Shown in pieces: positions 5,408-28,640 of a stretch of 64,000 nt of DNA; position 1 is the first letter of the stretch, and the number at the start of each line of letters is the position of its first letter. The position numbers and the translations under genes are program-made. Source of the DNA: Escherichia phage JLBYU32; sequence record OK272490.1; one strand, 5' to 3'. Under the pieces are notes generated by a model, which worked only from the letters and a program-made list of their open reading frames with translations, did not search any database and was not told the DNA's origin.

Positions 5408-5755
5408 ATGACATTTAAAGAGTTCTGTCAAGCTACTTTCATAGTTGTTTTCTTAGTTGGGGCAGGTGTCTGGGGAGGATACTCTTACAGAGACTACCAA
5501 GTTGCTGAAACTGAGCTAAACAATGAGAAGCTGATAAGTGTTGCTAAAGATGCTTATCAGGAAGGATTAGCTACACTGAGCACCAATTACAAAAATGATT
5601 TGAAAGATGTGCTTGCTAAGAATAAGCATACAAAAGAGGTACTAACATATGAAAAGACTAAGCCAGAGTTTTATAATGTTTGTGTTACTGATAATTATGT
5701 CAGGGTGTTCAACGAGCAAAGTGAACAGTACATTCAAAAACTCCCAAGTAAGTGA
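5408..5755 (+). CDS. putative i-spanin (Rz-like): N-terminal TM helix plus coiled-coil region
   Basis: hydrophobic segment FIVVFLVGAGVWGG near N-terminus; downstream lipoprotein ORF overlaps its 3' end in another frame. Confidence 0.35.
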   Translation: MTFKEFCQATFIVVFLVGAGVWGGYSYRDYQVAETELNNEKLISVAKDAYQEGLATLSTNYKNDLKDVLAKNKHTKEVLTYEKTKPEFYNVCVTDNYVRVFNEQSEQYIQKLPSK

Positions 5756-5918
5756 GAGTGACAAGTACACTCAAGAAGAGTCAAGATTCACTGTCAAAGG
5801 TAATACTGGTAGTGATGTGGCAGCAGCCCTTGAGTTTTATCGTGATGGTTTTTACCAGTGCACAATCAGAGCTAATAACCTTATTGATATGATTTTATTA
5901 GGAAATAAACAGCAATGA
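5649..5918 (+). CDS. putative o-spanin-like lipoprotein (Rz1-like), overlapping the preceding gene
   Basis: signal peptide with lipobox-like IMSGC (MKRLSQSFIMFVLLIIMSGCS); ORF starts inside and extends past the Rz-like ORF. Confidence 0.35.
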   Translation: MKRLSQSFIMFVLLIIMSGCSTSKVNSTFKNSQVSESDKYTQEESRFTVKGNTGSDVAAALEFYRDGFYQCTIRANNLIDMILLGNKQQ

Positions 5919-6184
5919 CAGAGAATGAAGATACTTTTTACGTAGAGGGTTACTTACTGTTACCACGACCAAAAGAAACTTATATGCGAATTGACTTCTT
6001 ACCAACCATTATGGATAATGTGATGTGTCATATCTTTATGCAAGGTGTCACAGCACAGCTTAAGCACGTTGGTAAAGAGTGCAAAATAAAGGTTGACACT
6101 CATCCAGAAATCAAAGAGAATCACTACACATGGTTCTTACCAGACTCTAAAGAAATCTTAGCAGTTCTTAAAACGAGGAAGTAA
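5915..6184 (+). CDS. hypothetical protein
   Basis: ORF, start overlaps upstream stop. Confidence 0.45.
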   Translation: MTENEDTFYVEGYLLLPRPKETYMRIDFLPTIMDNVMCHIFMQGVTAQLKHVGKECKIKVDTHPEIKENHYTWFLPDSKEILAVLKTRK

Positions 6185-22138: not shown

Positions 22139-23554
22139 ATGAGCGAGTTATTTAAACATGCGCACCTTCATGCAGGTCGAACTGAAAATGGTGCTGTAAA
22201 CCATACTTCATCAATGTCTTCTCTGGTAGACTTTTACAAAGCCGCTGGCTCAAGCCGTAGTAATGTAGAAATCTTACCAGACCTGTTCTACAAAGCTTTG
22301 CGTGAGGATGTTGATGTTGCAGTTCGTATTTTGCTTCATATGCGAGATGTACGAGAAGGTATGGGTGAGCGTAAAGCTTTCCGAACTGTTTTACTTCAAG
22401 CGATTGAAGATAAAGTTTTAGAGCCTACGCAGGTTCTTCGCATTATGGGTAAGATTGCAGAACTTGGTCGTTTTGATGACTTCAAAATCTTCGCAGGTAC
22501 TCGTTTTGAGACAGATGCCTTCAAACATTTAGAAGCAGCATTACTAGACCCTGCAACAGCAGGTTTAGCAGCTAAGTGGTTGCCACGAGTAAAACCACGC
22601 CACAAACAGTTTGTAAAACGTTTCTGCAAGTTTGCAAACTTAAGTGAGAAGGAGTATCGCACACTGTTGTCTGCACTGTCTGATACGGTTGAGCAAAAAA
22701 TCTCTGCTAATGAGTTTGGTAAGATTGACTACAGCAAGATTCCTTCACTCGCTGCTGCACGTTACCAAAAACTCTTTAACCGTAAAGATGGGGAACGTTA
22801 CAAAGCTTACATTGAGTCCCTCTCAAAAGGTGAGGCTAAGATTAACGCTGGCGCTGTTTACCCATACGATGTGATTAAATCTATCAAGTATGGTAATGCA
22901 GATGTTGCTAATGAGCAGTGGAAAGCACTACCAAACTGGATGGCAGAAGGTGAAAACATCCTGTGTATGACTGATGTTTCAAGCTCAATGTCTTGGGTGA
23001 ATCTTGGTTCAATCACTGCCCTTGATATTGGTGTATCACTTGCATTGTATGTAGCAGAACGCAATACAGGTTGCTTTAAAAATGAGTTAATGGTGTACTC
23101 AACAGACCCTCATTTCATCGAACTGAGTGGTGATTTACAGACTCGTATGCGTCAAGTAATGAGTCATGTTGAATATGGTTCAACTTACTTACAAGCAGCT
23201 TTTGACCGTATTCTTGAGATAGGTAAAAGAAACAACTTGACTCAGGAAGATATGCCAAGTAAGCTTATCATCTTCTCCGATATGGAGTTCAATCAGGTTG
23301 ATGGTGCTAACGGTCGTACAAACTTTGAAGCAATTCAGAGTAAGTACAAAAAAGCTGGATATGAGATGCCACAACTGGTATTCTGGTACTTAGCAAACCG
23401 TAATGGCACTTGCGAAGTATCTGTTAAGGATAACGGTGTAGCAATGGTATCTGGTTTCTCTCCAGCCACTTTAAAAGCTCTGCTTGGTGGTGAGAAGTTT
23501 GACCCAATCAGCGTAATGCTCAAAGCAGTAATGATTGACCGTTACATTTGGTAA
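22139..23554 (+). CDS. vWA-domain protein with MIDAS-like DxSxS motif (Ro60/TROVE- or DUF2828-like architecture)
   Basis: alpha-helical N-terminal half; CMTDVSSSMS MIDAS-like motif and FSDMEF in C-terminal half; 471 aa. Confidence 0.45.
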   Translation: MSELFKHAHLHAGRTENGAVNHTSSMSSLVDFYKAAGSSRSNVEILPDLFYKALREDVDVAVRILLHMRDVREGMGERKAFRTVLLQAIEDKVLEPTQVLRIMGKIAELGRFDDFKIFAGTRFETDAFKHLEAALLDPATAGLAAKWLPRVKPRHKQFVKRFCKFANLSEKEYRTLLSALSDTVEQKISANEFGKIDYSKIPSLAAARYQKLFNRKDGERYKAYIESLSKGEAKINAGAVYPYDVIKSIKYGNADVANEQWKALPNWMAEGENILCMTDVSSSMSWVNLGSITALDIGVSLALYVAERNTGCFKNELMVYSTDPHFIELSGDLQTRMRQVMSHVEYGSTYLQAAFDRILEIGKRNNLTQEDMPSKLIIFSDMEFNQVDGANGRTNFEAIQSKYKKAGYEMPQLVFWYLANRNGTCEVSVKDNGVAMVSGFSPATLKALLGGEKFDPISVMLKAVMIDRYIW

Positions 23555-23572: not shown

Positions 23573-23601
23573 TTGACAATATGTTTGATACCCTTTAATA
23601 T
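23573..23601 (+). promoter_or_regulatory. sigma70-like promoter TTGACA-17-TAATAT overlapped by palindrome GGGTATTGACAATA...ATACCC
   Basis: consensus boxes; inverted repeat spans the -35; upstream of tRNA cluster. Confidence 0.55.
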
Positions 23602-23663: not shown

Positions 23664-23692
23664 TTGACAATCACTAAAAAATAATGTTAAAG
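23664..23692 (+). promoter_or_regulatory. candidate promoter TTGACA with weak -10, just upstream of first tRNA
   Basis: TTGACA at 23664; -10 ambiguous. Confidence 0.3.
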
Positions 23693-23719
23693 TGGTTACA
23701 TAGAGTTTGAAAAGTTTAT

Positions 23720-23796
23720 CTCTGTTTAGCTCAGCTTGGTAGAGCGTTCCGTTTGGGGCGGTAAGGCCGGAGGTTCAAGTCCTCCAACAGAGACCA
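23720..23796 (+). tRNA. tRNA-Pro (anticodon TGG)
   Basis: hand-folded cloverleaf; 7-bp acceptor, T-arm GGAGG-TTCAAGT-CCTCC, CCA encoded. Confidence 0.7.
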
Positions 23797-23803
23797 AATT
23801 AAT

Positions 23804-23881
23804 GTTCCAGTAGACAAAACGGTAAAGTCACCACTCTTTCAAAGTGGATATTTGAGGGCTCAAATCCCTTCTGGAACGCCA
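23804..23881 (+). tRNA. tRNA-Glu (anticodon TTC), atypical T-loop CTCAAAT
   Basis: perfect acceptor and anticodon stems; loop CTTTCAA. Confidence 0.7.
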
Positions 23882-23883
23882 GT

Positions 23884-23963
23884 TTTGACAGAAGACCAAT
23901 TACAGCAAGTTTAATCTTATTCATCTGACACGAAATCGGACAAAGAAGAGATTTGGTCTGGTC
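23884..23963 (+). repeat. tRNA spacer element CAGAAGACC..ACAGCAA ... TTGGTCTGG (copy 1)
   Basis: long-range inverted repeat AGACC/GGTCT; recurs at least 4 times between tRNAs. Confidence 0.6.
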
Positions 23964-23972
23964 ATTAAGAAT

Positions 23973-24049
23973 TGCGGGTATAGAGAAAGGGCGTCTCACA
24001 TGTCTCATTAGCATGGTATCGGCAGGTTCGACTCCTGCACCCGCCTCCA
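23973..24049 (+). tRNA. tRNA-Met (anticodon CAT)
   Basis: anticodon loop CTCATTA; T-arm GCAGG-TTCGACT-CCTGC; 1-72 mismatch. Confidence 0.65.
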
Positions 24050-24050
24050 A

Positions 24051-24117
24051 TTTTGCAGAAGACCGTATGCAGCAATAAACTACTTTTTGCGGATAAAAGA
24101 AAAAACACGGTCTGGCA
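24051..24117 (+). repeat. tRNA spacer element (copy 2)
   Basis: TTTTGCAGAAGACCGTATGCAGCAA ... CACGGTCTGGC. Confidence 0.6.
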
Positions 24118-24126
24118 ATGTATTAA

Positions 24127-24203
24127 GGTTAGGAAGCACATAAGGTATGTGCGGTCGCCTGTTAAGCGAATGGCACAGGGTTCGAATCCCTGACTAACCG
24201 CCA
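24127..24203 (+). tRNA. tRNA-Asn (anticodon GTT)
   Basis: loop CTGTTAA; T-arm CAGGG-TTCGAAT-CCCTG. Confidence 0.75.
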
Positions 24204-24212
24204 AATTTAAAT

Positions 24213-24300
24213 GTGTCGTTATCCCGTAGATGGTAGCGGTGGGGACTGTAAATCCCTTGTCATTGAGACTCGGTAGGTTCGACTCCTACACGGCACACCA
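24213..24300 (+). tRNA. tRNA-Tyr (anticodon GTA), long variable arm
   Basis: 88 nt; loop CTGTAAA; T-arm GTAGG-TTCGACT-CCTAC. Confidence 0.7.
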
Positions 24301-24306
24301 AATAAA

Positions 24307-24384
24307 GGTTATGTAGTTTAATCTGGTTAAAATACTCCCCTGTCACGGGAGATGATGAGGGTTCAAATCCCTTCGTAACCGCCA
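24307..24384 (+). tRNA. tRNA-Asp (anticodon GTC)
   Basis: anticodon stem CTCCC/GGGAG, loop CTGTCAC. Confidence 0.75.
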
Positions 24385-24442
24385 ATTTTGAGAGGGCTAT
24401 TTAGCCCCTCCCTTAAAGAGTTCTTACGAGTATTCTTTAAAG

Positions 24443-24514
24443 GAGCAGAAGACCAAATACAGCAAATACGTATGATATTTTCAAGCCAATTTAATTTTGA
24501 AAAAATTTAAAACT
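24443..24514 (+). repeat. tRNA spacer element (copy 3)
   Basis: GCAGAAGACCAAATACAGCAA ... AACTTGGTCTGGC. Confidence 0.6.
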
Positions 24515-24520
24515 TGGTCT

Positions 24521-24668
24521 GGCTCAACAATTTTACAGAAGACCGTTTACAGCAAAACTTAAACAATCTATTTCTCGGTAAAGAAAAGGAGAAGGTTCGA
24601 TTCCTTCACTCGACAGATGTCGAGTTGGTGTAATGGTAGCACTTAAGATGATAAACAACGGTCTGGTA
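24521..24668 (+). repeat. tRNA spacer element (copy 4) containing a tRNA-like fragment
   Basis: TTTTACAGAAGACCGTTTACAGCAA ... AACGGTCTGG. Confidence 0.6.
24585..24640 (+). pseudogene. tRNA-like fragment: T-arm then acceptor-like hairpin then D-arm-like segment (degenerate or permuted tRNA?)
   Basis: GAAGG-TTCGATT-CCTTC then ACTCGAC-AGAT-GTCGAGT then TGGTGTAATGGTAGCAC; no canonical cloverleaf in normal order. Confidence 0.25.
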
Positions 24669-24817
24669 ATCATCTTTGCAGTAGCTTATGTGGCTAATTA
24701 TGTCGTCCCATGAGTGCCGATGAATTTCCTTAGCATGATTCTAGATTAGCTTAATAGGAAATGACTCTACAGACCCTTTAGCAAGGTCTGCGTAGGTTAC
24801 TGCAAAGATGATTTAAT

Positions 24818-24892
24818 GGAAGTGTAGCAGAATGGTGATGCGGCAGACTTTTAATCTGACAGGCGATGGGTTCGAATCCCTCCACTTCTACC
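24818..24892 (+). tRNA. tRNA-Lys (anticodon TTT)
   Basis: loop CTTTTAA; paralog of tRNA at 26051 (shared T-arm GATGGGTTCRAWTCCCTCC). Confidence 0.65.
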
Positions 24893-24897
24893 AAAAT

Positions 24898-24974
24898 GGT
24901 TCAGTCGCAGATAAGGTAATGCAGGGGTCTCATAAGCCCTATGAATGTGGGTTCGATTCCCATCTGAACCTCCA
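24898..24974 (+). tRNA. tRNA with anticodon CAT (Met, or Ile via lysidine)
   Basis: loop CTCATAA; perfect acceptor GGTTCAG/CTGAACC. Confidence 0.7.
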
Positions 24975-24976
24975 AT

Positions 24977-25051
24977 TGTGGGTTAGCATAAATGGTAATG
25001 CAAACGGCTGATAACCGTTAGAAGAGGGTTCGATACCCTCACCTACAACCA
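24977..25051 (+). tRNA. tRNA-Ile (anticodon GAT)
   Basis: anticodon stem AACGG/CCGTT, loop CTGATAA. Confidence 0.75.
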
Positions 25052-25066
25052 ATTTCAATAAAGTTG

Positions 25067-25095
25067 TTGACATTTAGATGTGACCACTTTATAGT
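25067..25095 (+). promoter_or_regulatory. sigma70-like promoter TTGACA-17-TATAGT inside tRNA cluster
   Basis: consensus boxes; followed by ~200 nt of structured non-tRNA sequence before next tRNA. Confidence 0.6.
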
Positions 25096-25299
25096 AACCT
25101 TAGTTTTCGTTGCGTAGCGTCTATTTTGCAAATTTAAAATAAATGCAAACGACAATGTTTTTCTGGCAGTAGCTTGATAGGCTAAACACCAGTGAGGTCT
25201 TCCAATCCCTCATCAAAGAATTTGGCGTACTAGCCCACGGTATGATTAATAAAGTGGGCATCTTTAAGGGCTTTCTAAGAGAGTCTTTAAAGATAATTA

Positions 25300-25381
25300 C
25301 GGGGCGTATCTCAGCTGTCTTCTAAACAGCCGTTAACCGAGTAAGTGGAGTATGCGGGTTCGAGTCCTGCCGCCTCGACCA
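25300..25381 (+). tRNA. atypical tRNA-like gene (possible anticodon TCT, Arg); fold uncertain
   Basis: good acceptor and T-arm (GCGGG-TTCGAGT-CCTGC) but non-canonical D region; hairpin GCTGT-CTTCTAA-ACAGC. Confidence 0.35.
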
Positions 25382-25524
25382 ATTTAGTTAGCAGATTACT
25401 TAGACGACCTAAGCGGGTCTTCCTGTAGGGAGGTGGTCTGTATCTCATGTTTTCCAGAACATGTAAATAATCTGAGAAGGGGCTTTACAGTGTTGAGATA
25501 ATACGGTAAGCTTCGAATTATAGT

Positions 25525-25606
25525 ATGGGACGATGTTAAGACTCTAAGGCATGAGCAACGGCTTCCAACACCGTTTCAAAGGGGTTCAACTCCTCCGTCC
25601 CATGCC
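25525..25606 (+). tRNA. atypical tRNA, possibly tRNA-Trp (anticodon CCA) with oversized D region
   Basis: perfect 7-bp acceptor ATGGGAC/GTCCCAT, T-loop TTCAACT; candidate anticodon loop TTCCAAC. Confidence 0.4.
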
Positions 25607-25620
25607 AAAGTCTTATTAGG

Positions 25621-25708
25621 GGTAGGTAGCGGCTAATGGTAGCCAAACTGTCTTGAAAACAGTTGCCACTGTAGAGATACGGTGAGGGTTCGACTCCTTT
25701 ACTTACCG
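25621..25708 (+). tRNA. tRNA-Ser (anticodon TGA), long variable arm
   Basis: 88 nt; anticodon stem ACTGT/ACAGT loop CTTGAAA; CCA not encoded. Confidence 0.7.
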
Positions 25709-25855
25709 CCTAATAAGATTTAAAGCCAAGCTTCATTCGGATGTTGCTTTGGTATACCGCGTGTATTGTTGTACACACAGATAAAACACCTAGTAGGTGT
25801 CACGGAGAAGAGATAATATCAAGCTCTCCAAAGGTTCTAGTCACCGGATTAAACA

Positions 25856-25880
25856 AGACTATGCAAAGACCTTTTTAGGT
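25856..25880 (+). terminator. hairpin + T-tract inside tRNA cluster spacer
   Basis: AAGACC-TTTTT-AGGTCTT followed by TTTTAGAG. Confidence 0.4.
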
Positions 25881-25966
25881 CTTTTTAGAGGGCTTCTAAG
25901 GTTATTAGTCGCTTGTTGTGGAACCTTGTTGCTCAGGTTCTTAGAAGTTCTCTAAAAAGATTTAAT

Positions 25967-26043
25967 GCACCTATAGCCCAACTGGTGGAGGCAGCAGACT
26001 TAGAATCTGCTCAGTGTGAGTTCGAATCTCTCTAGGTGTACCA
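25967..26043 (+). tRNA. tRNA with anticodon TAG (Leu by anticodon) but class I (short variable loop) shape
   Basis: anticodon stem GCAGA/TCTGC loop CTTAGAA; 77 nt; discriminator A. Confidence 0.6.
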
Positions 26044-26050
26044 AATTAAT

Positions 26051-26126
26051 GCAGGTGTAGCAAAATGGTTATGCGGCTGACTCTTAATCAGTAAGACGAT
26101 GGGTTCAATTCCCTCCACCTGTACCA
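26051..26126 (+). tRNA. tRNA-Lys (anticodon CTT)
   Basis: loop CTCTTAA; paralog of tRNA-Lys(TTT) at 24818. Confidence 0.65.
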
Positions 26127-26132
26127 AACATT

Positions 26133-26208
26133 GGGGTCATAGTTTATATGGTTAAAATTCGAGTTTTGCAAACTTGGGAACTGAGTTCAATTCTCAGTGA
26201 CTCCACCA
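26133..26208 (+). tRNA. tRNA-Ala (anticodon TGC)
   Basis: G3:U70 wobble pair in acceptor stem; loop TTTGCAA; T-arm CTGAG-TTCAATT-CTCAG. Confidence 0.8.
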
Positions 26209-26214
26209 ATTAGT

Positions 26215-26289
26215 GCATCCATAGTTTAAACGGGAAAATTACAGTCTTCCAAACTGAGGTTGAGGGTTCGATTCCCTCTGGATGCTCCA
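26215..26289 (+). tRNA. tRNA-Gly (anticodon TCC)
   Basis: perfect acceptor GCATCCA/TGGATGC; loop CTTCCAA. Confidence 0.75.
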
Positions 26290-26296
26290 AATTAAT

Positions 26297-26372
26297 GCTC
26301 CTATCGTATAATTGGCTATTACGGTTGCCTTGTAAGCAACTTATCAGGGTTCGAATCCTTGTGGGAGCACCA
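26297..26372 (+). tRNA. tRNA-Thr (anticodon TGT)
   Basis: anticodon stem GTTGC/GCAAC loop CTTGTAA. Confidence 0.8.
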
Positions 26373-26467
26373 ATTCAGAGGTCAAGTGAAAGACCGCTTT
26401 GAGTCAACTGAAGACCGTAACAAATTCCACGGAGTTGAGTTAGCGGCACAACTCCAGACCTCTTTCA

Positions 26468-26543
26468 TACTCGCTTAGTTTATATGGTAAAACATCACCC
26501 TTACAAGATGAAGAAAAAGGTTCAAGTCCTTTAGTGAGTACCA
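26468..26543 (+). tRNA. tRNA-Val (anticodon TAC)
   Basis: T-arm AAAGG-TTCAAGT-CCTTT; loop CTTACAA. Confidence 0.65.
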
Positions 26544-26544
26544 T

Positions 26545-26622
26545 GTTCCAGTATCCCAATTGGCAGAGGATGCAAGCTCAAACCTTGTACTAGTGACGGT
26601 TCGAATCCGTCTTGGAACACCA
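26545..26622 (+). tRNA. tRNA with anticodon CAA (Leu by anticodon), class I shape
   Basis: T-arm GACGG-TTCGAAT-CCGTC; loop CTCAAAC; discriminator A. Confidence 0.6.
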
Positions 26623-26627
26623 ATTTT

Positions 26628-26703
26628 GCAGGATTAGTTCAAATGGAAAGAGCAACAGTCTACGAAGCTGTTAATAGGGGTTCGAATCCCTTATCCTGCG
26701 CCA
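26628..26703 (+). tRNA. tRNA-Arg (anticodon ACG)
   Basis: perfect acceptor GCAGGAT/ATCCTGC; loop CTACGAA. Confidence 0.8.
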
Positions 26704-26722
26704 ATTTAAAGAGGCTATTTAG

Positions 26723-27280
26723 ATGAGATATTTGAAGTATGCTTCATGGATTTTCTTAGCTTTGTTAGAGCCATTTGCAGCAATCTTAGCAGTTATCTTA
26801 GCACCTTTTGTAGTTCCATTCTACAGTGAGAAGAAAGGACACTTACCTTTCGGGTTCAGATGGATGGAGACATATGACAACCCAATTGATGGTGATGAAG
26901 GTCACGTTAAAAGATGGGCTAATATTAGATGGATTGGTAAACTAGGTGTCTACATGCAAAGAGTCGGATGGCTCTGGAGAAACAAAGCTTATAACTTCTC
27001 TTACCATGTATTAGGAAGAGATGTAAAAGATGTTACTAAGTGGAAAGGTAATATCAACGTAAGTTCTGACCCCGAAGATAATCAGACAGGTTATCTCCTA
27101 ATGTGGAACAGTAATGCTTGGGGATTATTCGCTTTTATCCCATCAATTAAAATCTTTGGTAAACAATTTTACTGGAGAATTTATATTGGATGGAAACTAA
27201 AAAGTGTTGTCCCAGAAGAAAGAGCATTCTCAAGGGAAAGAGTTATGTTGGCATTCTTTATTCATCCACTGAGAAAGTAA
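26723..27280 (+). CDS. hypothetical membrane-anchored, Trp-rich protein embedded in tRNA cluster
   Basis: AAAGAGG RBS 8 nt upstream of ATG; N-terminal hydrophobic segment. Confidence 0.55.
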   Translation: MRYLKYASWIFLALLEPFAAILAVILAPFVVPFYSEKKGHLPFGFRWMETYDNPIDGDEGHVKRWANIRWIGKLGVYMQRVGWLWRNKAYNFSYHVLGRDVKDVTKWKGNINVSSDPEDNQTGYLLMWNSNAWGLFAFIPSIKIFGKQFYWRIYIGWKLKSVVPEERAFSRERVMLAFFIHPLRK

Positions 27281-27288
27281 AGATTTAA

Positions 27289-27364
27289 AGGGGATTAGTT
27301 TACAAGGTTAAAACCTCGGTCTTTGAAATCGAAGAAGTTGGTTCAATTCCAACATCCCCCGCCA
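27289..27364 (+). tRNA. tRNA-Gln (anticodon TTG)
   Basis: T-arm GTTGG-TTCAATT-CCAAC; loop CTTTGAA. Confidence 0.7.
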
Positions 27365-27366
27365 AT

Positions 27367-27445
27367 GCTCCATTACTCCAATTGGCAGAGAGGCCAGACT
27401 TAAAATCTGTGTTATGTATCGGTTCGAATCCGATATGGAGTACCA
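27367..27445 (+). tRNA. tRNA with anticodon TAA (Leu by anticodon), class I-like shape
   Basis: T-arm ATCGG-TTCGAAT-CCGAT; loop CTTAAAA; discriminator A. Confidence 0.6.
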
Positions 27446-27450
27446 AATTT

Positions 27451-27526
27451 AGCGGTATAGCATAACTGGCAATGCAGCAGCCTCTGAAGCTGTCCTATTA
27501 AGGTTCAAATCCTTATGCCGCTGCCA
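27451..27526 (+). tRNA. tRNA-Gln (anticodon CTG)
   Basis: T-arm TAAGG-TTCAAAT-CCTTA; loop CTCTGAA. Confidence 0.65.
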
Positions 27527-27557
27527 CTTCTAAGGATTCTTGCGAGAGTCCTTAAAT

Positions 27558-27633
27558 GTGGCCTTATCATAAATGGTAATGACCCATGCTGTGAACATGG
27601 TCTATACGGGTTCAAATCCCGTAGGTCACCCCA
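27558..27633 (+). tRNA. tRNA-His (anticodon GTG)
   Basis: anticodon stem CCATG/CATGG loop CTGTGAA; discriminator C. Confidence 0.75.
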
Positions 27634-27639
27634 ATTTAT

Positions 27640-27715
27640 AGTCCAAGTAGCTTATATGGTTAAAGCGCGTGTCTGAAAAACATGAGAAGAGGGTTCGAAT
27701 CCCACTGGACTACCA
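27640..27715 (+). tRNA. tRNA-Phe (anticodon GAA)
   Basis: loop CTGAAAA; T-loop TTCGAAT; acceptor pairing slightly ambiguous. Confidence 0.65.
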
Positions 27716-27731
27716 ATTTCAAAGGTGCTTA

Positions 27732-28466
27732 ATGAAAGAGATGACAGAACAAGGTAAGGAGATTTTTAATCTCTTAAAAACCGGTAGAGGGTTTTCTAAT
27801 CCCCTTATTACTGGTGCAGCAGTTCTCGGTGGAACCGTAGCTGCCTCTACATCACTTGTAAGTTCTATTAGCTCTGTAACAGACCCTACAATGAAGGAGA
27901 AACTTGTTGCTGCTGGACTTACAACAGTCCTTCTAAACAGCTTTACAACAAGCCTTACAAGCACTACAGCGACTACTAAGACCTTAACAGACTATGGTCA
28001 AAAGTCTATTGATGAGTTTTCATCACGTATGCAGGTAGCAAAGGGGTATTCCAATGTTATGGGTGCAGCAGGGGAACAAGTTGGCTGTACACCGTTTAGT
28101 GGTATTATGGGCGTTGCTACAGAATATGGTCAAAAAGCTATTGACACAATTAACAGTGCACTAGATGACGTTAATGATGTATTAAGTGACTTACAAGATG
28201 CTATTGATAAGGGTCTTGATACTGTTTCTGATTTAGCTAATCAGGCTGTTAGCAAGATTAATGAAGGTATCTCGAAGATTACAGCTTATGCAGATGAAGT
28301 TGTGCAGATGATTGAAGAAGAAGCTGCCCTTATTGCAGAGTACCTTAAAACGAATATCAATGGGTTCTTAGCAGGTATCTTACCAGACTGGTTTGATGAT
28401 GCCTGTAAAACTGGTGTAATTGATACTATTGCAACACCAGAAATGAAGAGCGCATTACAGAAGTAA
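27732..28466 (+). CDS. hypothetical Ser/Thr/Ala-rich protein embedded in tRNA cluster
   Basis: start moved to ATG 27732 (track start 27669 is an alternative start inside tRNA-Phe); ends 1 nt before tRNA-Ser. Confidence 0.5.
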   Translation: MKEMTEQGKEIFNLLKTGRGFSNPLITGAAVLGGTVAASTSLVSSISSVTDPTMKEKLVAAGLTTVLLNSFTTSLTSTTATTKTLTDYGQKSIDEFSSRMQVAKGYSNVMGAAGEQVGCTPFSGIMGVATEYGQKAIDTINSALDDVNDVLSDLQDAIDKGLDTVSDLANQAVSKINEGISKITAYADEVVQMIEEEAALIAEYLKTNINGFLAGILPDWFDDACKTGVIDTIATPEMKSALQK

Positions 28467-28467
28467 T

Positions 28468-28560
28468 GGAAGATTAACCCTAAAAGGTAAGGGAGCAGTT
28501 TGCTAAACTGCCAGTAGCTGAGAAATCGGTGTACCAGTTCAAGTCTGGTATCTTCCTCCA
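28468..28560 (+). tRNA. tRNA-Ser (anticodon GCT), long variable arm
   Basis: 93 nt; perfect acceptor GGAAGAT/ATCTTCC; anticodon stem GCAGT/ACTGC loop TTGCTAA. Confidence 0.75.
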
Positions 28561-28564
28561 ATTT

Positions 28565-28640
28565 GAATCCGTGACAGAAATGGCTATGTGCCTGTCTGCA
28601 AAACAGGTTTATAAGGGTTCGAGTCCCTTCGGATTCTCCA
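28565..28640 (+). tRNA. tRNA-Cys (anticodon GCA)
   Basis: perfect acceptor GAATCCG/CGGATTC; anticodon stem CCTGT/ACAGG loop CTGCAAA. Confidence 0.8.

Follow-up and report, generated by a model that had tools for sequence, protein, structure and literature searches.

In this study we analysed a window of 64,000 nucleotides (nt) from Escherichia phage JLBYU32 (sequence record OK272490.1; the window means this whole stretch, and all positions are counted from its first letter). Positions 23720-28640 hold a large cluster of transfer RNA (tRNA) genes. ARAGORN called 25 tRNAs in this region, all on the + strand and nearly all with a gene-encoded CCA, and 23 of them reached the gathering score of the Rfam tRNA model RF00005. 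The class II tRNAs Tyr and Ser(UGA) match the tRNA-Sec model or score weakly in Rfam. These 25 tRNAs represent 19 amino acids; Trp is absent, and ACG is the sole Arg species. Two further genes, which were folded by hand, add the anticodons UCU (Arg) and CCA (Trp), so the total becomes 27. A first-pass annotation of this DNA had already counted about 27 tRNAs, and the count holds as 25 ARAGORN tRNAs plus two conserved structured RNAs. ARAGORN assigned no differing anticodons and simply left the two non-canonical genes uncalled. Thus, the cluster probably contains 27 tRNAs for all 20 amino acids, two of which are non-standard in architecture:

25300-25381, + strand: putative non-cloverleaf tRNA-Arg(UCU), scored by a covariance model, uncalled by ARAGORN and RF00005
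25525-25607, + strand: candidate 8/4 tRNA-Trp(CCA)-like gene, recognised by conservation and compensatory changes

The cluster as such is already known. A nucleotide search matched the 5.3-kb region from end to end, at 95-96% identity, with many sequenced Felix O1-like myoviruses, among them Escherichia phages LMP34 and bumzen and Salmonella phage BPS15Q2. By this similarity the window is from a Felixounavirus, subfamily Ounavirinae. GenBank records of the relatives annotate the same stretch as a tRNA cluster with a few small open reading frames (ORFs), and locus, gene order and sequence are the same as in the window in the annotated clusters of Felixounavirus and Mooglevirus (LMP34, bumzen, Sf13, Sf14). 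The published tRNA set of the Moogle-like phage Sf14 consists of 26 tRNAs for 19 amino acids, and Trp is the one that it lacks (PMC12482277). In that paper and in the public annotations, the tRNA-Trp-like gene is unrecognised and the length of variable loops is undiscussed.

The gene at 25300-25381 has an acceptor stem of 7 base pairs (bp) (25300-06 with 25371-77, CGGGGCG/CGCCUCG), which is followed by A73 at 25378 and an encoded CCA at 25379-81. The T arm (25354-70, GCGGG UUCGAGU CCUGC) is canonical, and the anticodon arm (25314-30, GCUGU CUUCUAA ACAGC) carries the anticodon UCU at 25321-23 together with U33 and A37. The gap between the acceptor and anticodon stems is 7 nt long, UAUCUCA, beginning with UAU at 25307-09 right after the acceptor stem. 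On the 3' side of the anticodon arm lie 23 nt, CGUUAACC-GAG-UAAGUGGAGUAU, which consist of a bulge (CGUUAACC, 25331-38), the GAG, and a D-loop-like segment (UAAGUGGAGUAU, 25342-53). This GAG is predicted to pair with the CUC of the gap in a 3-bp helix that we call P2 (25310-12 with 25339-41; nt 11-13 with nt 40-42). P2 encloses the anticodon arm, and thus the RNA would be a three-way junction, not a cloverleaf. Compared with the canonical cloverleaf, the acceptor stem with discriminator and CCA, the T arm and the anticodon arm are all present, whereas the D hairpin, and with it the four-way junction, is absent. The first-pass annotation had described good acceptor and T arms and a non-canonical D region here; the arms are as described, and no D hairpin was found. 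RF00005 gave no match to this gene up to an E value of 10, the only Rfam match being tRNA-Sec at 23.3 bits. ARAGORN missed not only the window copy but also 137 of the 143 members of the family described below.

BLAST with 25300-25381 matched 277 records. Copies in unrelated phages are 85-88% identical and mostly unannotated, and the relatives include rV5-like Vequintavirus, PBECO4-like jumbo phages, Klebsiella Sugarlandvirus, Proteus phage Mydo, a Listeria phage and Streptomyces phages. In five of these BLAST relatives, the three stems (acceptor, anticodon and T) and the CUC/GAG pairing carry compensatory changes; in Streptomyces phage BoomerJR, for example, P2 is CGC/GCG instead. The family was enlarged by two independent pattern scans of IMG/VR. 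The first scan used the 3' motif as the pattern and gave 50 distinct sequences that were not selected on the anticodon. The second scan fixed GUAUC, the anticodon loop and the T loop; it gave at least 120 matches, and shorter subfamilies of 77-80 nt appeared. Together with BLAST, these scans revealed at least 131 distinct sequences of 77-82 nt with CCA. A covariance model scored 93 family matches at 49-101 bits (window copy 100.2), whereas canonical tRNAs reached at most 38.7 bits.

All members share one architecture. The 5' part runs acceptor(7) - UAU - P2 5' strand (C-N-N) - N - anticodon arm, and the 3' part continues with 3-10 nt - P2 3' strand - U-A-R-N(0-3)-G-G-A-N(2-9) - T arm - acceptor - N73. 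Of 82 sequences, 79 have UAU right after the acceptor stem, and the GG motif is present in all; in 127 of 130 the nucleotide 3' of GG is an A, and most members have G or A at N73. In one alignment (A1), 98.6% of cells are paired, double changes occur at 18 of the 20 pairs, and none of 500 shuffles matched this. In another alignment of 82 distinct sequences (A3), 98.5% of cells are paired, and P2 is 99.2% paired using GC, UA, CG and AU. All four helices covary in A1 and A3, including all 7 acceptor pairs and all 5 anticodon-stem pairs.

The family is restricted to Arg. Among the 130 sequences parsed out of at least 131, the anticodons are UCU in 120 (over-represented, as the sampling was pattern-based), CCU in 4, CCG and ACG in 2 each, and UCG and GCG in 1 each, all of which belong to Arg. 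The anticodon played no part in the choice of the 50 first-scan sequences or of 8 additional tandem copies detected by the model. Some phages carry tandem remodelled versions with UCU+CCU+CCG or UCU+CCU+ACG. It has been reported that bacterial Arg identity depends on A20, C35, U/G36 and A/G73, and that A20 is the main determinant for E. coli arginyl-tRNA synthetase (ArgRS) (PMC9976931). In the family, U8-A9 comes after the acceptor stem, and the A-R..GG segment mimics A14, R15, G18 and G19. A canonical tRNA-Arg of the same anticodon is also present in just 4 of 133 family loci, and in JK55, Mordin, Sf13 and Wc4-1 a canonical tRNA-Arg(UCU) occupies the slot of 25300-25381. GenBank records either leave the remodelled genes without annotation or call them 'tRNA-OTHER / Nd_NNN'. 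In bumzen, Spivey and wV8, though not in the window, HNH homing-endonuclease genes lie directly 3' of the remodelled tRNA-Arg (L002 2342-2740; L003 698-1207; L009 627-1031). We considered a mobile cassette of tRNA plus HNH homing endonuclease as the cause of the spread and rejected it, because a homologue lies within 300 nt in just 8 of 132 family loci.

Bacterial and archaeal genomes were also scanned with the family pattern. Among the 120 matches listed, 18 were structurally consistent and the rest were mostly chance matches. Nine of these 18 were examined: five lie in arrays of 7-25 tRNAs per 5.7-8 kb, on contigs of metagenome-assembled genomes (MAGs) of Blastocatellia, Pyrinomonadaceae, Bryobacterales and Parachlamydia, and four have at most one neighbouring tRNA. 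The arrays may be prophages, mis-binned phages or of cellular origin. Contigs binned as Acidobacteria (L389 2000-5100; L402 2200-7800; L427; L435) hold 15-25 tRNAs in 8 kb including a remodelled tRNA-Arg. Three of them (L389, L402, L435) have unusually long calls (92-95 nt) of 'tRNA-Ile(UAU)', and the L389 array contains three type-I tRNA-Leu (UAG, CAA, UAA).

One known parallel is organellar. Metazoan mitochondrial tRNA-Ser(AGY) and nematode mitochondrial tRNA-Ser(UCU) likewise have no D hairpin, and their connector pairs 3' of the anticodon arm. Steinberg and Cedergren reportedly proposed in 1994 an extended-stem model for such D-armless mitochondrial tRNAs, in which the anticodon limb is lengthened. 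The phage class differs from these in being Arg-specific and 77-82 nt long, not miniaturised, and in keeping a canonical T loop and the GG-A motif; moreover, it is found in bacteriophages and in tRNA arrays on bacterial contigs rather than in organelles. A review of non-canonical tRNAs from 2020 describes D-arm loss in mitochondria only and no phage or bacterial case (PMC7609411). We found no description of the remodelled tRNA-Arg class in open-access full texts, although an earlier description is possible.

How would such an RNA work? We propose that P2, with its 3-4 bp, stacks on the anticodon stem and that the two together form a limb of about ten layers, which is normally made up of the D stem and the anticodon stem. 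The displaced GG would dock on the T loop at the elbow in the role of G18 and G19, and the A after GG would occupy the position of the A20 determinant for the host ArgRS. The outcome would be an L-shaped, chargeable tRNA that reads AGA. AGA is the commonest Arg codon of the phage, accounting for 42% of Arg codons and 18 per 1000 codons, and UUA accounts for 28% of Leu codons. In E. coli, AGA is among the rarest Arg codons. Because the anticodons are Arg-only, an A20-like base is present, the canonical allele is replaced and AGA is used so much, we consider that 25300-25381 is likely to be a working tRNA-Arg(UCU), belonging to a widespread Arg-specific phage class. The wider proposal that phages widely use an Arg-specific non-cloverleaf tRNA, charged by the host ArgRS and decoding on the ribosome, is plausible, and we lean towards it by a small degree.

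Several points weigh against this proposal. RNAalifold, run on alignment A1, recovered three of the four helices (acceptor, anticodon and T stems) and not the 3-bp P2. In the minimum free energy (MFE) structure of the single sequence 25300-25381, the CUC pairs with a second GAG (positions 49-51) and does not form P2. With P2 missing from both predictions, the case for P2 comes from covariation. Alignment A3, in turn, was fitted to the covariance model, and the structure of the model is thus favoured in it. The over-representation of UCU mentioned above belongs here as well.

The second gene, 25525-25607, departs from the standard in another way. Its acceptor stem has 8 bp (25525-32 with 25596-603, AUGGGACG/CGUCCCAU), followed by G73 at 25604 and CCA at 25605-07, and its T stem has 4 bp (25581-84 with 25592-95, GGGG/CCUC). 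The linker from the acceptor to the D stem is 8 nt, AUGUUAAG(A) (25533-41), and the D stem has 3 bp (25542-44 with 25553-55, CUC/GAG; CAC/GUG in Mooglevirus) closing the loop UAAGGCAU. A 5-bp anticodon stem (25557-61 with 25571-75) presents the anticodon at 25565-67 in the centre of the loop YUCCAAM, and the variable loop is UCAAA. The first-pass annotation gave 25525-25606 good acceptor and T arms and an abnormal D region; this description is right, and the true end, with the CCA, is one base further, at 25607. The 8/4 acceptor branch is known in phage tRNA-Ser and tRNA-His (Mukai et al. 2017, PMC5389517). The branch of 12 bp, made up of the 8-bp acceptor stem and the 4-bp T stem, is common to those tRNAs and to 25525-25607, whereas the CCA (Trp) anticodon, the 8-nt linker and a C.A at 31-39 set the phage gene apart from them.

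Conserved copies of this gene occur in 235 Ounavirinae records, none of which annotates it as a tRNA, and a pattern scan gave matches in Ounavirinae only. Its nine distinct sequences show 98.9% pairing, with compensatory changes at 8 of the 20 pairs, acceptor and T stems included. ARAGORN did not call it, and Rfam did not match it at permissive thresholds. Among the bacterial Trp determinants, CCA, A1-U72, G73 and G3-5/C68-70 agree. Two features argue in the other direction, namely U2-A71, where bacterial tRNA-Trp has G2-C71, and the C.A mismatch (C.C in relatives) at 31-39, beside the anticodon loop. On balance, the sequence comparisons suggest that 25525-25607 is quite probably an Ounavirinae-specific tRNA-Trp(CCA)-like gene, which would supply the sole missing amino acid. 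If it works, the Felix O1 group carries tRNAs for 20 amino acids, not 19. A role of this odd tRNA-Trp in recoding UGA was considered and rejected: TGA is an ordinary stop in 10 of the 64 ORFs, and this normal use gives no sign of recoding. No description of the tRNA-Trp-like gene was found in open-access full texts, though an earlier one is possible.

The unusual shapes of tRNA-Arg, of the type-I tRNA-Leu and of the tRNA-Lys T stems (both described below) might have been selected mainly for escape from tRNA-cleaving defence nucleases. This reading, which the first-pass annotation had raised as a possibility and which is drawn by analogy, is compatible with a working tRNA-Arg(UCU), and as the main cause we regard it as possible but doubtful. 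It has been shown that tRNA-cleaving immune nucleases are widespread, that phage tRNAs escape anticodon nucleases, that AriB of PARIS contacts the D loop too, and that phage T5 tRNAs escape PARIS and retron nucleases by substitutions including some in the D loop (PMC10264068, PMC11555353, PMC12409363). The rescue tRNAs of T5 resemble those of the window in being phage tRNAs that differ from the host at nuclease contact sites including the D loop; they differ in that T5 has experimentally proven point substitutions in normal cloverleaves, whereas in the window the predicted secondary-structure topology itself is changed. tRNA-Arg is the target of colicin D, and remodelling is confined to Arg, which would fit an enemy that specifically recognises the body of tRNA-Arg; this restriction hints at an Arg-specific selective agent. 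However, no nuclease recognising the D arm of tRNA-Arg was identified in this analysis, and the anticodon loop CUUCUAA, the usual site of escape mutations, is unchanged. Among near-identical Felixounaviruses, some hold the canonical allele and others the remodelled one. Codon supply accounts for the presence of the tRNA-Arg gene without defence, and it is at least as good an explanation as defence evasion.

A less probable alternative is that the two non-canonical genes encode tRNA-like RNAs acting outside translation, for example as decoys or sponges for nucleases directed at tRNA-Arg or tRNA-Trp, as partners of the neighbouring Ro60-like protein, or as processing or regulatory elements. A Ro60-like gene and tRNA-mimicking Y-like RNAs share the cluster (see below), and distant Ro-like genes lie within about 1 kb of family members in three other loci (L013, L077, L218); near most family loci, however, a Ro-like gene is absent. 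A decoy would likewise retain an Arg anticodon loop, and neither ARAGORN nor RF00005 calls either gene as a tRNA. Yet a covarying 7-bp acceptor stem, A/G73, an encoded CCA, a canonical T loop and an A20-like base would all be superfluous in a decoy. The remodelled tRNA-Arg replaces the canonical tRNA-Arg of the same anticodon rather than accompanying it, its six Arg anticodons are found in tandem sets, as in ordinary isoacceptor families, and the rank of AGA as the top Arg codon of the phage also speaks against a role outside translation. We therefore think such a function improbable. That the two genes are decaying pseudogenes or recombination scars with chance folds, as the tRNA-OTHER labels or missing annotation in some GenBank records and the frequent rearrangement implied by HNH genes beside some copies might suggest, is ruled out by covariation for practical purposes: compensatory changes occur in every helix of both genes across many lineages, both genes are conserved, the 25300 family has at least 131 distinct members with invariant functional motifs, and few family loci have an HNH homologue nearby.

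If 25300-25381 and its relatives are indeed working tRNAs, they would make up the first class of tRNAs without a D hairpin outside organelles. The D hairpin would then be dispensable in bacterial-type translation as long as another strand provides the elbow and the A20 contact, and the remodelled tRNA-Arg would be acceptable to RNase P, the CCA enzyme, ArgRS, EF-Tu and the ribosome alike. Such a class would be a natural experiment in tRNA architecture and a scaffold for tRNA engineering. Furthermore, since ARAGORN and the Rfam tRNA model miss the family, phage tRNA repertoires would be systematically incomplete; a whole isotype would have been missed in hundreds of genomes, and analyses of codon compensation and of anti-defence functions would be affected.

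The other genes of the cluster are as follows, with the program or match by which each was identified.

23720-23796, + strand: tRNA-Pro(UGG) (ARAGORN, Rfam)
23804-23881, + strand: tRNA-Glu(UUC), T loop CTCAAAT (C54) (ARAGORN)
23973-24049, + strand: tRNA with CAU anticodon, U1.C72 mismatch, U73 (ARAGORN)
24127-24203, + strand: tRNA-Asn(GUU) (ARAGORN, Rfam)
24213-24300, + strand: tRNA-Tyr(GUA), class II, under the RF00005 gathering score (ARAGORN)
24307-24384, + strand: tRNA-Asp(GUC) (ARAGORN, Rfam)
24818-24893, + strand: tRNA-Lys(UUU), T stem ATGGG/CCCTC with two mismatches (ARAGORN)
24898-24974, + strand: tRNA-Met(CAU) (ARAGORN, Rfam)
24977-25051, + strand: tRNA-Ile(GAU) (ARAGORN, Rfam)
25621-25710, + strand: tRNA-Ser(UGA), class II, RF00005 33 bits, 3' end GCCT (ARAGORN, Rfam)
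25967-26043, + strand: type-I tRNA-Leu(UAG), variable loop 4 nt, A73 (ARAGORN, Rfam)
26051-26126, + strand: tRNA-Lys(CUU), T stem mismatched as in tRNA-Lys(UUU) (ARAGORN)
26133-26208, + strand: tRNA-Ala(UGC) (ARAGORN, Rfam)
26215-26289, + strand: tRNA-Gly(UCC) (ARAGORN, Rfam)
26297-26372, + strand: tRNA-Thr(UGU) (ARAGORN, Rfam)
26469-26543, + strand: tRNA-Val(UAC) (ARAGORN, Rfam)
26545-26622, + strand: type-I tRNA-Leu(CAA), D loop AAUUGGCAGA (A14, A15, G18G19, A20a), U48, A73 (ARAGORN)
26628-26703, + strand: canonical tRNA-Arg(ACG) (ARAGORN, Rfam)
26723-27280, + strand: ORF, DUF7338, PHROG 2143, function unknown (domain/PHROG match)
27289-27364, + strand: tRNA-Gln(UUG) (ARAGORN, Rfam)
27367-27445, + strand: type-I tRNA-Leu(UAA), variable loop 7 nt, Leu-type D arm, A73 (ARAGORN)
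27451-27526, + strand: tRNA-Gln(CUG) (ARAGORN, Rfam)
27558-27633, + strand: tRNA-His(GUG), G1-C72, C73, T at -1 (ARAGORN)
27640-27715, + strand: tRNA-Phe(GAA), irregular acceptor/T junction (A7.C66) (ARAGORN)
27732-28466, + strand: ORF, DUF7217, PHROG 2114, 'putative membrane protein' (domain/PHROG match)
28468-28560, + strand: tRNA-Ser(GCU), class II (ARAGORN, Rfam)
28565-28640, + strand: tRNA-Cys(GCA) (ARAGORN, Rfam)

The three tRNA-Leu genes (UAG, CAA, UAA) are 77-79 nt with CCA, and their variable loops of 4, 5 and 7 nt make all three type I. Short variable loops and discriminator A had been noticed in the first pass, and both are as stated. The genes share a 3-bp D stem, a D loop of 10-11 nt with the pattern A14-A15-Y-U-G18-G19-N-A20a-G, U48 and A73. 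This D-loop pattern agrees with that of E. coli tRNA-Leu; in tRNA-Leu(UAG), position 20a is G in the window isolate and A in relatives. Compared with bacterial class II tRNA-Leu, the long variable arm is therefore missing, while the D-arm features, U48 and A73 are retained (20a of UAG excepted). E. coli leucyl-tRNA synthetase (LeuRS) reads A73, A14, A15-U48, G18G19 and A20a, and the long variable arm is dispensable (PMC9976931). Nevertheless, the type-I tRNA-Leu(CAA) of Streptomyces coelicolor was reportedly not a substrate for E. coli LeuRS (PMC6614811), unlike a minimal E. coli tRNA-Leu without the variable arm, which is charged (PMC9976931). The Streptomyces result means that charging of the phage type-I tRNA-Leu is not guaranteed. 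The S. coelicolor tRNA-Leu(CAA) and mitochondrial tRNA-Leu resemble those of the phage in the short variable loop, A73, A14 and Leu anticodons (PMC6614811). In the phage, all three Leu isoacceptors are type I, whereas the LeuRS of the host (E. coli or Salmonella) normally sees type II only.

Sequence comparison indicates that type-I tRNA-Leu is common in phages and not special to the window phage. Among 88 distinct non-Ounavirinae tRNA-Leu from the phage and tRNA-array loci that were fetched, 41 are type I (at most 80 nt), and most of these share the D-arm signature. Both types occur together in Pectobacterium phage Wc4-1, which also belongs to Ounavirinae: its tRNA-Leu(UAA) is class II and its tRNA-Leu(UAG) is type I. 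In Felixounavirus, the tRNA-Leu(UAG) slot holds one of two unrelated type-I alleles, beginning GCACCUAUAGCC (window, 25967-26043) or GGGAGAUUGACGG (L002, L084 and others are among the loci compared). These two alleles, in parallel to the tRNA-Arg alleles, suggest cassette-like replacement of single tRNA genes. No discussion of type-I tRNA-Leu in phages was found in open-access full texts, though the genes are annotated. As for the proposal that the phage carries non-standard decoders, it stands structurally for the three type-I tRNA-Leu, the D-hairpin-less tRNA-Arg(UCU) and the 8/4 tRNA-Trp-like gene, while the oddities of tRNA-Glu and tRNA-Leu are weaker than had been presented.

The CTCAAAT T loop of tRNA-Glu is really present, although it is not conserved. 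All 8 distinct homologous sequences in 20 related loci have TTCAAAT, TTCAAGT or TTCGATT, and since they lack C54, it is not a design feature; it looks like a private T-to-C single-nucleotide polymorphism of this isolate or a sequencing error. The identical atypical T arm ascribed to the two tRNA-Lys genes proved half right: they share the T stem ATGGG/CCCTC, and their T loops differ (TTCGAAT and TTCAATT). The T stems contain a non-Watson-Crick A.C at 49-65 and U.U at 50-64, which are kept in Felixounavirus and Mooglevirus (U50 changed to C, still unpaired) and absent from Pectobacterium phage Wc4-1. In tRNA-Phe(GAA) (27640-27715), pair 7-66 is A.C, or A.A in Mooglevirus, and the register of the T stem is off by one nucleotide; relatives show covariation at the six outer acceptor pairs, and this oddity is thus conserved. 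Because T stands at -1 of tRNA-His(GUG), the G-1 normally needed by bacterial histidyl-tRNA synthetase is not encoded. The same holds for all Ounavirinae homologues checked, and the gene is a pseudo-tRNA in the annotation of LMP34. The 3' end of tRNA-Ser(UGA) is GCCT, not GCCA, and its CCA is thus incomplete; a Felixounavirus tRNA-Ser(UGA) was reported to permit infection of serine-codon-recoded E. coli (context in PMC12269064). Instead of an elongator tRNA-Met, the CAU tRNA at 23973-24049 could, from its sequence, be an initiator-like species or a tRNA-Ile2 that depends on lysidine.

Directly upstream of the cluster and interleaved with its first tRNAs lies what we read, from predicted structures, as a Ro-like and Y-RNA-like module fused to the tRNA cluster. 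The elements E1-E4 were identified by comparison of paralogues.

22139-23554, + strand: putative Ro60-like (TROVE + vWA) protein gene, DUF2828 + DUF7788, PHROG 850 'RNA-binding protein', directly upstream of the cluster
23884-23966, + strand: Y-RNA-like E1, CAGAAGACC...GGUCUGG, closing stem UGAC/GUCA
24051-24120, + strand: Y-RNA-like E2, closing stem UUGC/GCAA
24441-24527, + strand: Y-RNA-like E3, closing stem GAGC/GCUC
24531-24671, + strand: Y-RNA-like E4 with a permuted tRNA-like module

The AlphaFold2 model of the 22139-23554 protein has a pLDDT (predicted local distance difference test) of 83, and its top ten Foldseek matches in the PDB are all Ro60/Rsr/TROVE (E 4e-9 to 6e-7, template modelling score up to 0.63, full length). 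phmmer against PDB sequences gave no match for this protein, and NCBIfam gave nothing meaningful. By predicted fold it thus appears to be a Ro60-like TROVE + vWA protein, visible in the fold search only. E1-E4 are paralogous; they start with CAGAAGACC-NNN-U-N-CAGCAA, end with NNN-GGUCUGG, and their closing stem covaries. E4 contains a T arm (24591-24607), a loop-closed acceptor-like hairpin (24608-24625), which covaries among relatives, and a D arm (24627-24642). The module order of bacterial YrlA is V-T-AS-D, and E4 has the same order (PMC4201824). As in the Ro60 (Rsr)/YrlA/YrlB systems, a TROVE + vWA protein stands beside small RNAs with an end-closing stem; unlike in those systems, the protein is a DUF2828 member without a sequence-level match to Ro, and the RNA stem motif is CAGAAGA...UACAGCAA, whereas that of Y RNA is GNCGAAN0-1G (PMC4201824). 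Rfam gave no Y_RNA or YrlA match at E values up to 10. An IMG/VR scan with the Y-like motif AGAAGANNNTACAGCAA gave chance matches only, with a Ro-like gene in none of the 120 loci listed. A 143-kb phage contig (L266) encodes a 51%-identical protein, beside which lie the same kind of elements (5500-6100) and then a tRNA cluster. A Ro60-like protein with four Y-like RNAs inside the tRNA cluster would give Ro/Y-RNA biology an E. coli/Salmonella phage model that is amenable to genetics.

The gaps between the genes contain further structures. The tRNA-free stretches 24668-24813 and 25155-25300 start with a motif like a tRNA 5' half, GCAGTAGCTTATGTGGCTAA and GCAGTAGCTTGATAGGCTAA, comparable to the 5' end of tRNA-Phe, and the former is closed by a 21-nt inverted repeat (24668-88 with 24793-813). 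Sub-threshold Rfam matches to transfer-messenger RNA (tmRNA) were seen at 24991-25177 (32.5 bits, overlapping tRNA-Ile) and 25109-25298 (16 bits). A long hairpin with 26-nt arms (25875-900 with 25940-65) occupies 25875-25965, and a hairpin AGAGGUC...GACCUCU lies between tRNA-Thr and tRNA-Val (26373-26468). These two gap hairpins may serve in processing or as terminators, or they may belong to additional small RNAs. Matches to the sigma-70 promoter consensus were also recorded, although their total count in the region is not above that in shuffles.

23573-23601 and 23664-23693, + strand: two sigma-70-like promoter matches ahead of the first tRNA, consensus matches only
25067-25095, + strand: best internal promoter match, TTGACA-17-TATAGT, 11/12, consensus match

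The two ORFs at 26723-27280 and 27732-28466 are conserved and set among the tRNA genes, with which they are presumably co-transcribed. Records of relatives describe the product of the latter, the DUF7217 ORF, as a membrane or receptor-recognition protein.

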